A stretch of 63,499 nucleotides of DNA, the filler included, from an uncultured Methanosarcinales archaeon (GTDB lineage Archaea > Nanobdellota > Nanobdellia > Woesearchaeales > CAZXZL01), in NCBI GenBank assembly GCA_964645415.1. It is 5 parts of 5 records of this genome, joined end to end, with 100 filler letters (N's around TTAATTAATTAA, not from the genome) between each part and the next. Parts side by side here need not be neighbours in the genome. Positions count along the whole stretch, not along the records: positions 28,543 to 41,927 come from CAZXZL010000028.1; 4 more parts are not named here. One strand, given 5' to 3'. Each line of letters begins with the position of its first letter. Positions within the stretch are counted from its first letter, which is position 1. The position numbers were made by a program. Below, piece by piece: positions 36,001 through 39,000 of the stretch.

Positions 36001-39000
36001 ATATGTAAATTATTTTAGTTTATATAATTTTTTTATCTCTTTTTTTAACTTTTAAACTCTTTTAATAATAAATTAACTGGATTAATTTCTATAAGTAAGT
36101 TTTATATATTAAGTTAAATTAACTAATTTGTCGGTGGGGGTTGCCGAGTGGTCAAAGGCGCTGGACTCAAGATATTTGAGTTATGATGCATGAGATGATA
36201 TGTTTAATCTATGGGACATCCAGTCCAATAGATGGTTCGAGGGTTCGAATCCCTTCCCCCACATAAATTATTTGTTTGGAAAGATTTAAAAAGAAATATT
36301 ACTATTTATTTAATACTTGTTTACAAATATATTTTTTAATCAAACTTAATCTAAAAATCAATAATAGAGGTCTTAAAATTGGCAGATAATAATTTACAAT
36401 CAGAAGTAATAAATACTAATTTGACAGATGAATTAAAAAAATCTTACATCGATTATGCGATGTCGGTAATTGTTAGTAGAGCATTGCCTGATGTTAGAGA
36501 TGGATTAAAACCAGTACATAGAAGAATTCTATATGCTATGGGTGATATGAGTTTATATCATACTAGAGGTCATAAAAAATGTGCAAGAGTTGTCGGAGAA
36601 GTTCTTGGTAAATATCATCCTCATGGTGATACCTCTGTTTATAACGCACTTGTTAGAATGGCTCAATCTTTTTCATTAAGATATCCTTTAGTTGATGGAC
36701 AGGGTAACTTTGGTAGTATTGATGGTGATTCTCCAGCTGCAATGCGTTATACTGAGTCAAGGTTAGAAAAAATCTCAAAGTTCATGCTTAAAGATATTGA
36801 TAAAGATACTGTTGACTTTAGACCTAATTTCGATGAATCTATGAAAGAACCTGTAGTTCTTCCTTCTCAGTTTCCAAATTTATTAGTAAATGGTTCAAGT
36901 GGTATTGCTGTAGGAATGGCAACAAGTGTATTACCACATAATATGACTGAAGTTTGTAATGCTGTTAAGTATTTACTTGATAAAGATATTGAAGATGTAG
37001 AAGCTACAGAATTAATGGATATTATAAATGGACCTGATTTTCCAACAGGTGGTGAAGTTTTAGGTGAAGAGGGGATTTTAAAAGCATATGAAACAGGTCA
37101 TGGAAAAATTAAAGTTCGTGGTGTTATTAAAGAAGATGAATCTTCTAAAAAGAATAGATTGATAATCACAGAAATTCCTTACATGGTTAAAAAGTCAGAT
37201 ATTATTAAAGAAATTGCAAAACATGTAAAAAATGATAAAATAAAAGGAATTAATGATATTAAAGATGAATCGAGTAGAAAAGGAATTAGAGTTGTAATTG
37301 ATTTGAAAAGGAAAGCAAATCCACAACTTGTTAAAAATTATATTTTCAAAAACACTCGTATGAAAAAGACTTTATCTATGATTCATCAAGTTTTAGTAAA
37401 TGGTAAACCAAAATTACTTAATCTTAAAGACTTACTTTATGAATTTATTAAACATAGAAAAGAGATTATTAAAAGAAGAACTGAATTCTTATTAAATAAA
37501 GCAAAATCAAGATTACATATTGTAAAAGGATTGATTATTGCATTAGATTCTATTGATGATGTTGTAGAATTAATAAAATCTTCTGATGATGTTGATTCTG
37601 CAAAAGAATCTTTAATTTCAAAATATGATCTTTCTGAAAAACAATCTCAATCAATTCTTCAGATGAGACTTCAAAAATTAACTTCTTTAGAGCAAAAAAC
37701 TCTAAGAGATGAAAAAGAAGATTTAGAAAAAGAAGTTAAAGAGTTAGAAGGTATTTTGAATAGTGAAGAAAAGATTAAAGAGATTATTAGAGAAGAGACT
37801 GATGAGATTATTGAAAACTTTGGTGATGAACGTAAAACTGAAATCATTGAAGATTTCCAAAATATAACTAGAAAAGATTTAGTGAAAAAAGAAGAAATTG
37901 TTATCACTTTAACTAATAAAGGTTATATCAAAAGAGTACCTCTAAAAAATTACCGTGTCCAAGGAAGAGGCGGTAAAGGTATTTTAGCTTCAAATATCAG
38001 TGATGATGAATATATCGAAAATATAATCTTAACTGATACACATTCAGATATATTATTCTTTTCTGATCACGGAAAAGTATATTCTAAAAAAGCTTTTGAA
38101 ATACCAAAAGCTTCAAGAACTGCTAAAGGAAAACATATTGCAGGAATACTTTCATTTTCAAAAGAAGAGGATATCACTCACATTGTTGATATGAATAGAG
38201 CTGAAGAGGATAATAAGAACTCACTTATGTTCATTACTAAAAATGGTTATGCAAAAAGAACTGCTATTGAACATTTTGAAGATGTTAGAAAGTCAGGAAT
38301 TATTGCAATAAAATTAGAGGAAGATGATAATCTTGTTGAAGTTATTCCTGTAAACGATGATGATAAAGTAATGTTGTCTACAAAACATGGTAAATCTATT
38401 AGGTTTAAAACTACTGAAGTTCGTATTATGGGAAGAAATACAAGAGGAGTAATTGGTATTAAGTTAGATACACAAGATGAAGTTAGAAGTGGTATAATTG
38501 CAAATGAAGGAGAAGTATTAACTGTTACTACATTTGGTTATGCAAAAAGAACTGATCTTGAAAATTATTCTGTTATTCATAGAGGAGGAAAAGGAGTAAT
38601 TAATGTTAGAATTTCTCCTAAGAATGGAGAGGTAGTTGAAGTAATAAATACCTCAAAAGAAGATGAAATTATGATTCTTTCAAAAAAAGGAAAACTAATT
38701 CGATTGACAGTTGAAAAAATTTCTAAAATGGGAAGAAGTACGATGGGTGTTAAATGTATGGATGTTGGAAGAGGAGATAAAATCATCTCTGCCGAAAAAA
38801 TATCTTTTATAGATGAAGATTAAAATGTTTTTATCTTTAACTTATAATTTAAAAGAAGCAGAATTGGATTTGAAAAGGTTCAATTTAGAAGTAGATTCAA
38901 TTCATAATAACTCTACTGATAAAGTGATCACTTTTAATAGTGATTTTAAATCTAATGATGTTAGAAATTACATTCGTTTTTCTCAATCGGTTAGATATAT

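Follow-up and report, generated by a model that had tools for sequence, protein, structure and literature searches.

A putative one-kink C/D guide for the wobble position in the introns of three archaeal tRNAs

Why should a tRNA intron begin with a sequence antisense to the anticodon loop of its own tRNA? The question is raised by the tRNA-Leu(CAA) gene in the window, by which we mean the whole 63,499-nt stretch of DNA that was analysed, a chain of contigs in which C28 begins at 28543. An initial annotation had proposed that this intron, like those of tRNA-Trp and elongator tRNA-Met(CAU), guides 2'-O-methylation of the tRNA's own wobble base (Cm34). At the level of sequence, this reading is supported by the register of the guide, by specificity controls, by covariation and by the protein genes present.

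The tRNA-Leu(CAA) intron and its counterparts in the genome

The genome (961 kb, 25% GC) contains 40 tRNA genes according to ARAGORN run with introns. Five of them, for Leu-CAA, Trp, Met(CAU), Tyr and Ile(UAU), are interrupted, while six other C34 tRNAs and the initiator tRNA are intronless. The tRNA-Leu(CAA) gene is missed by an ARAGORN run without introns. Features of this gene, and the positions of the other two genes with the module, are given in Table 1.

Table 1. Features of the tRNA-Leu(CAA) gene (window coordinates) and the two further genes with the module (contig coordinates).
Feature	Position	Strand	Remarks
tRNA-Leu(CAA) gene, 37/38 intron	36134..36263	+	ARAGORN with introns, C28:7592-7721; Rfam RF00005, 45.3 bits
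5' exon, positions 1-37	36134..36171	+	
Wobble C34, predicted 2'-O-methylation target	36168	+	paired to G36178, fifth base upstream of box D
46-nt intron	36172..36217	+	
Antisense guide to positions 30-37	36175..36182	+	8 pairs, 6 Watson-Crick; 3-nt loop closed in cis
Box D-like AUGA	36183..36186	+	GA is one strand of tandem G.A pairs
Inter-box loop	36187..36193	+	single terminal pair here; 2-8-bp stem-loop in most relatives
3-nt kink bulge GAU and second kink-turn GA	36194..36198	+	register taken from relatives
Box C-like element	36195..36201	+	corrected register
3' strand of central 4-bp helix, bulge-helix-bulge	36212..36215	+	4/4 pairs with positions 32-35
3' exon from A38	36218..36263	+	
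tRNA-Trp gene	C30:5076-5196		46-nt intron; ARAGORN with introns
Elongator tRNA-Met(CAU) gene	C44:136-259		49-nt intron; ARAGORN with introns

The guide pairs with positions 30/31-37 through 8, 8 and 7 pairs in the Trp, Leu and Met introns, respectively (6, 6 and 7 of them Watson-Crick), and in each, counting upstream from the NUGA box, the fifth base is the G that faces C34; the box reads AUGA in Leu and Met and CUGA in Trp. The ARAGORN parse thus bears out, in three of three introns, the earlier claim of a guide and NUGA with C34 at N+5, and the introns of tRNA-Tyr and tRNA-Ile(UAU), said to be without this layout, again yielded none. At the 3' end of all three introns lies a separate strand that forms the splice helix with positions 32-35 (4/4 pairs). 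Since in the Leu intron this strand pairs with positions also held by the guide, the two compete. A second guide, for position 39, is absent from all three introns.

The layout had been reported to exceed expectation from shuffled introns. Under a looser rule than was then used (at least 6 Watson-Crick pairs, a GA in register and an RUGA downstream), it was found in 8 (Trp), 20 (Leu) and 12 (Met) of 20,000 base shuffles, in agreement with that report. The layout is real and lies far beyond chance.

Register and retargeting in related introns

Relatives were collected with pattern searches free of guide and boxes, covering 401 (Trp), 201 (Leu-CAA), 201 (Met) and 201 (Leu-UAA) genomes of the same order. 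From each of the Trp, Leu-CAA and Met searches 30 loci were analysed, together with 100 further regions that looked like tRNAs on visual inspection of the tables. The Trp rows were used without near-duplicates, unpublished genomes and 18 matches that were not listed, non-tRNA loci were discarded on inspection, and one guide-less initiator gene with an interrupted stem (L182) is uncounted. We used our own intron parsing, because the splice points given by ARAGORN are unreliable in these introns. A phylum-wide pattern was too loose for counts (288/301 genomes matched) and served only to pick loci.

The presence of the same layout in relatives, as claimed before, holds at the level of the order. 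It was found in 91 of 95 Trp, 32 of 45 Leu-CAA and 10 of 10 elongator-Met introns, this genome included. None of the 15 initiator-Met introns in the same sample has it, which is the best control available because positions 31-37 are common to initiator and elongator tRNA-Met. Since Cm34 has been reported in the initiator tRNA-Met of two euryarchaea (Wolff 2020, PMC7668247), this control speaks for specificity of the module and not for absence of the modification. Introns of other tRNAs at the same loci are likewise devoid of the layout (0/7). Shuffled sequences showed it in 87/19,000 (Trp), 11/9,000 (Leu-CAA), 8/2,000 (elongator Met) and 0/3,000 (initiator Met) cases. The layout-positive introns form 42 (Trp), 21 (Leu-CAA) and 8 (Met) clusters below 75% similarity, kin not being independent.

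Where the guide has 5 or more Watson-Crick pairs, the distance from the base facing C34 to the start of the GA box is 5 nt in 89 of 92 Trp, 34 of 38 Leu-CAA and 10 of 10 Met introns. The only other frequent offset is 2, which arises because the base preceding an AUGA-type box spells a G-A together with it; remaining offsets occur in at most 5 introns. Guides of at least 6 Watson-Crick pairs fit the anticodon loop of their own tRNA in 86/91, 30/32 and 9/10 introns (same order) and the loop of another tRNA in 0-4, so the earlier observation that the guide changes with the anticodon stands.

The claim of the initial annotation that no tRNA-Leu(UAA) intron has the layout reflects its small sample, and the module is not limited to C34. 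A count by eye, which excluded unpublished genomes, gave about 98 Leu(UAA) introns; the module is in register in 5 of them, with an A facing U34: one in G068 and two in G133, found by script, and one each in G095 and G128, found by eye. Near misses are one base out of register (G057) or contain one mismatch (G147). The A opposite U34 indicates that the guide changes at the target base itself. The module is absent from 13 of the 45 Leu-CAA and from most Leu(UAA) introns, and outside the order 15 loci of the same class, chosen as matches, have it in introns of tRNA-Met, tRNA-Leu(CAA) and tRNA-Trp.

Kink-turn, protein machinery and origin

Downstream of box D, the relatives have a stem-loop followed by three unpaired bases and a GA. 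Of the three stem pairs that adjoin the kink, the first is formed in 124, the second in 123 and the third in 105 of the 133 layout-positive introns, against column-shuffle means of 116, 65 and 73, and the pair beyond the U.U position is paired in 97 (shuffle mean 58), as A-U in 59, C-G in 21 and U-A in 10. The counts for the second and third stem pairs and for the pair beyond U.U were unmatched in 1,000 column shuffles, which ignore kinship. The U.U position itself is occupied by U.U (55), U.C (22) or U-A (21), and the bulge reads GAU in 85, AAU in 21, UAU in 14 and UGU in 7 introns; its last U is fixed by the RUGA rule, and a stem abutting a 3-nt bulge was not imposed. The kink has a covarying stem and, as predicted from these columns, the standard kink-turn geometry of tandem G.A pairs, 3-nt bulge and flanking stems described in PMC7229835.

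The initial annotation had described a single, stemless K-loop with a box C'-like GAGAUGA. That there is one kink is borne out: an upstream box C is absent in 133/133 introns, and a second, loose module occurs downstream in 4/133. The stemless loop, however, gives way to a two-stem kink-turn in the relatives, and GAGAUGA is found in only 4 of the 133 introns, 3 of which are from this genome. What is conserved is a 3-nt bulge with a GA, and we therefore place box C at the element 3 nt further 3' (Table 1). In the window GAGAUGA occupies 36192-36198. The hairpin closing GAGAUGAU was considered as the kink itself and dropped, as relatives pair box D with a downstream RUGA, mostly without GAGAUGA.

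In this genome the kink stem comprises 3 bp in Met, 2 in Trp and 1 in Leu. The Leu kink in the window is the weakest of the three, with its single stem pair and an A.A beyond U.U. One parse gives the bulge register of Table 1 and a first-match rule gives one 5 nt upstream. In all three introns the inter-box bases can alternatively pair 3' of box C.

The genes of fibrillarin (225 aa) and Nop5 (295 aa) lie side by side on C46 and that of L7Ae on C10, all with open reading frames. We considered a monomeric Nop5 without coiled coil, which would suit a half guide, and rejected it: residues 82-294 align with the solved archaeal Nop5 over coiled coil and C-terminal domain. We likewise rejected, as unsupported, a machinery reserved for the introns, there being a canonical two-box candidate at C18:14489; its D guide has no convincing match in rRNA or tRNA, tRNA-Leu(UAA) included. 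The sole SPOUT methylase found, encoded at window 31619-32383, belongs to the TrmJ family and is far below the TrmL cut-off, and an FtsJ search gave two partial matches, one above the cut-off, over 91/181 positions.

Nop5 was found in 93 of 101 genomes of the order. Two genomes of family f18 with guide-less Trp introns, G017 (98% complete) and G144 (91%), have no Nop5 and no fibrillarin match above the cut-off, and G122, with a guide-less Leu intron, has neither protein. Nop5 is present in G194 and G156, whose Leu introns are guide-less, and the module occurs without a Nop5 match in the fragmented assemblies G110, G127 and G068. With such mixed genomes the signal for co-loss is thin.

How the module may have arisen is suggested by at least 119 loci from named records, 76 of which were parsed as Trp. 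A full C-guide39-D'-C'-guide34-D order is present in at least 19 Trp loci, from Thermoplasmata and a Thermococcaceae record, and a kink followed by guide 34 in at least 16, mostly from Micrarchaeota and Hadarchaea. The guide34-kink order seen here occurs in at least 21, with introns down to 22-27 nt, in records that include Woesearchaeota, Aenigmarchaeota, Undinarchaeota, Altiarchaeales, Micrarchaeota and Nanoarchaeota. At least 20 are unclassified or guide-less, some of them misfiled by the rough sorting rule. Within the order, 30 of 36 long Trp introns contain another antisense stretch, the fifth base of which is paired with position 39. It ends 15-17 nt past the box C GA in 25 of the 30 and in most is followed by a plain hairpin at the place expected for a second kink. 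This guide34-D...C-guide39 order would result if the full guide had been opened at another point and D'/C' replaced by a hairpin.

We infer that the module is a circularly permuted and halved C/D guide, descended from a two-guide tRNA-Trp intron by loss of the second kink. Earlier authors have already suggested that archaeal C/D RNAs can be circularly permuted (PMC6009581, PMC3491384). Gene order makes the old terminal C/D pair a more likely source of the retained kink than C'/D', contrary to the box D'/C' identity first assigned. The series of full, permuted-with-hairpin, half and guide-less introns would illustrate how a guide RNA shrinks in reduced genomes.

Action in cis and comparison with known guides

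In protein-free folding of anticodon arm plus intron, C34 pairs with the guide with a probability of 1.0 (Trp), 0.94 (Leu) and 0.98 (Met), and with the splice helix with 0.0, 0.05 and 0.01. Across the layout-positive introns, this genome included, folding prefers the guide hairpin to the splice helix in 86/91 Trp, 28/32 Leu-CAA and 7/10 Met cases, by energies that ignore kink-turns and proteins. The hairpin loop closed in cis is 3-7 nt in 124 of 133 introns. In trans, half guides offer mostly 6-8 bp (medians of -9.7 kcal/mol for Trp and -6.0 for Leu), and 19 full two-kink Trp introns mostly 10-11 bp (median -15.2 kcal/mol), the greater length being due to the first intron bases, which are also paired there. 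It has been reported that an 8-bp substrate is not modified in trans in vitro and that the enzyme takes at most ~10 bp (PMC7229835). These two observations fit best with a tethered hairpin of 6-8 bp. The guides are also shorter than the 9 continuous Watson-Crick pairs usually taken as cut-off for prediction (PMC6009581).

We consider it highly probable that the module is a methylation guide for position 34 and, with rather less assurance, we favour a natural half C/D guide that acts in cis on its own precursor before splicing. On folding of the pre-tRNA, the start of the intron would fold back and pair with the anticodon loop (6-8 bp, closing a loop of 3-7 nt), placing the guide helix directly upstream of box D. 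Box D and the downstream box C would form a single kink-turn that binds L7Ae and then Nop5-fibrillarin, and fibrillarin would methylate the ribose of position 34, paired five nucleotides upstream of box D. Positions 32-35 would then leave the guide and pair with the 3' end of the intron, forming the splice motif, and cutting and ligation would follow this refolding. As the fold requires release of 32-35 from the guide before the splice motif can form, methylation should precede splicing. Protein binding, methylation, cis action and this order of events are what we infer from the patterns above.

It is unlikely, though it has the support of in vitro work on H. volcanii (PMC2584109, PMC4090602), that the guide instead works in trans, an excised (possibly circularised) intron or a second precursor guiding another tRNA molecule. 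RtcB and a 155-aa splicing endonuclease, which speak for such a route, are encoded in the genome. However, the half guides offer fewer pairs in trans than the full introns do, folding predicts that in every precursor the target base is occupied by that precursor's guide, and the cis loop is short.

Distinctly unlikely is a folding or regulatory switch, with L7Ae bound to the kink-turn and splicing delayed or gated by the hairpin, but no methyl transfer. Guide hairpin and splice helix are indeed mutually exclusive, with the hairpin winning, and one-box RNPs were non-specific in one study (PMC1635284). But a switch needs neither the fixed 5-nt spacing between position 34 and box D nor a position-39 guide with canonical spacer, and it leaves unneeded the restriction of the module to tRNAs with known guided Nm34 (PMC7994747).

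We regard it as very improbable that the module is active in most relatives and decaying in this genome, particularly in its Leu copy. The weak stem and A.A pair of the Leu kink would fit decay, as would the alternative hairpin that each of the three introns can form at box C and the partial or broken modules of relatives such as L165, L177, L229, L391 and L413; against it, none of the three guides is broken or out of register, both GA steps are kept, in a genome of 25% GC, and the protein reading frames are open. Chance, or a by-product of the bulge-helix-bulge, which itself needs antisense to 32-35, has next to no probability: the guide is short and TGA words are common at 25% GC (25,884 loose module matches), but shuffle rates are under 0.5%, the splice-motif strand is a separate element, and the splice motif occurs with no module beside it in the initiator-Met introns, in those of other tRNAs and in most Leu(UAA) introns. 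The controls from relatives already refute this reading.

Beyond the preferred cis-acting guide, there is in our judgement an even chance that the module is a natural, portable half C/D cassette of small archaea, placed just after the 5' splice site in several unrelated tRNAs, retargeted by a change of a 6-nt guide, methylating strictly in cis and gating splicing until the methyl group is on. It would then be the first class of one-kink guide working in cells, and would provide a selectable function for many archaeal tRNA introns.

Euryarchaeal pre-tRNA-Trp is already established as the host of a box C/D guide, located in its 37/38 intron (Haloferax volcanii; Pyrococcus sR50; Rfam RF01133 sR3) (PMC7994747, PMC2584109, PMC4090602), and the module described here would be a variant of this kind of guide. 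Both have a 37/38 intron, an antisense to the own anticodon loop and C34 at N+5 of box D, and both depend, here by prediction, on fibrillarin, Nop5 and L7Ae. The full Trp guide (19 loci) has two box pairs, guides for 34 and 39 in the order C-guide39-D'-C'-guide34-D, and 10-11 bp, in contrast to one kink, the order guide34-D-C and 6-8 bp here, without guide 39 in this genome; the module is, moreover, found in Leu-CAA, Met and some Leu-UAA introns. We file it as a variant because it would work like a C/D guide, with its N+5 antisense, kink-turn (weak in the Leu copy of the window) and protein genes, yet has one box pair in place of C/D and C'/D', 5-8 pairs in cis in 133/133 introns in place of ~9-12 bp, and no match to a curated Rfam C/D family over these tRNA genes, only to RF00005. 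RF01133 matches two full introns, L103 and L031, both below gathering, and none of the half-type introns given to it (window; L347, L348, L011, L015).

Also close is the intron RNA of elongator tRNA-Met in Nanoarchaeum equitans, a related small archaeon; this stable and abundant 66-nt RNA is depicted with a GC hairpin, a single box D and a variant of box C, and is considered a likely C/D RNA (Randau 2012, PMC3491384). It is probably the same module; the available parts of that account name no target, N+5 register, cis model or spread to other tRNAs. In reviews, the tRNA-Trp intron guide is called unique and the Met guide always free-standing (PMC2584109, PMC4090602) or never intronic (Grosjean 2008, PMC2584109). 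In Pyrococcus, the tRNAs reported to have a C/D guide for position 34 are precisely Leu-CAA, Leu-UAA, Met and Trp (PMC7994747), the guides of the first three being free-standing. Other free-standing guides include that for H. volcanii tRNA-Met (PMC2584109) and Pyrobaculum sR26/27/45/46/51 (PMC6009581). These free-standing guides have the same targets and the same modification as predicted here but are, according to these sources, separate two-box RNAs that act in trans. One-kink self-guides in Leu-CAA or in the introns of several tRNAs were not found described in the literature searched, mostly open papers; here, intron guides occur in three tRNAs of one genome, in a design common to more than 130 introns of relatives.

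Engineered halfmers share with the module one box pair and an open-ended guide, but are trans-acting laboratory constructs with conflicting specificity: one-box RNPs were active without site specificity in one report (Hardin and Batey 2006, PMC1635284), and half guides methylated site-specifically with archaeal proteins in vitro in another (Yang et al. 2020, PMC7229835), which leaves open whether halfmers function in cells. If the module is active, a 120-130-nt RNA and three small proteins would suffice to address directly the activity of one-kink guides in cells, the choice between cis and trans that is left open for intron guides (PMC2584109), and the purpose of archaeal tRNA introns.

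Competing pairings of the module introns

The three module introns of this genome, which interrupt tRNA-Leu(CAA), tRNA-Trp (contig C30) and tRNA-Met (contig C44), have the word GAGAUGAU in common (word and flanking bases: window 36187-36203 in tRNA-Leu(CAA)). The word is scarce among relatives and is present in 4 of the 133 layout-positive introns of the order-level sample, which includes these three. In each of the three, bases 5' of the word are able to pair with bases 3' of it, and the hairpin thus formed would compete with the kink-turn. Word and hairpin together may reflect either a common recent origin or a release conformation. 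In the splice helix, C34 is mismatched, with A and not G opposite, in 42/76 layout-positive tRNA-Trp introns from the order-level search (e.g. loci L001, L006, L015); such an A would make the splice helix weaker relative to the guide hairpin.

Other features of the genome

Features located in the window and in contigs C1 and C18 of this genome
Feature	Location	Strand	Remarks
tRNA-Ile(UAU)	C1:16963-17066		ARAGORN with introns; 26-nt intron
Archaeal SRP RNA	window 24126-24396	-	Rfam
TrmJ-family tRNA methyltransferase gene	window 31619-32383	-	same contig as tRNA-Leu(CAA)
RelA/SpoT family gene	window 34107-35996	-	TIGR00691 over cut-off
gyrA	window, at 36379		after tRNA-Leu gene
Two-box C/D sRNA candidate (locus L346)	C18:14489-14538	+	intergenic; canonical; boxes C, D', C' and D all perfect

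The tRNA-Leu gene is adjoined on its upstream side, on the opposite strand, by the RelA/SpoT family gene, a family unusual in archaea. The TrmJ-family enzyme likely targets tRNA position 32. A third CAU tRNA was not found among the 40 tRNA genes that ARAGORN, run with introns, returned for the whole genome, so AUA may be decoded without agmatidine.

The two-box C/D sRNA candidate matches Rfam snoPyro_CD with an E-value of 0.0028, under the gathering threshold. No convincing target of its D guide was found in rRNA or tRNA, tRNA-Leu(UAA) included. Its D' guide forms a 10-nt pairing with this genome's 23S rRNA at U2592, presumably the equivalent of A-loop U2552.

Other intron forms in relatives

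In many of the relatives' tRNA genes the 37/38 intron is apparently not the only one, with additional introns in the D or T arm (L156, L168, L174, L220, L246, L261, L272-L274 and others). Very small modules occur among the matches listed: tRNA-Trp introns of 22-27 nt (L065, L091, L123, L148, L417) contain guide, box D and a minute loop, and their box C shares bases with the strand of the splice motif. A further reduced tRNA-Trp layout, also among the matches listed, has a single kink with the anti-34 stretch 3' of it and no clear box D after that stretch; it occurs in Micrarchaeota (L037, L041, L048, L050, L052, L056, L060) and Hadarchaea records (L057, L059, L071). Long tRNA-Trp introns (e.g. 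L010, L011, L015, L238, L258-L260, L292) have a position-39 guide, followed by a plain hairpin where the second kink would be.
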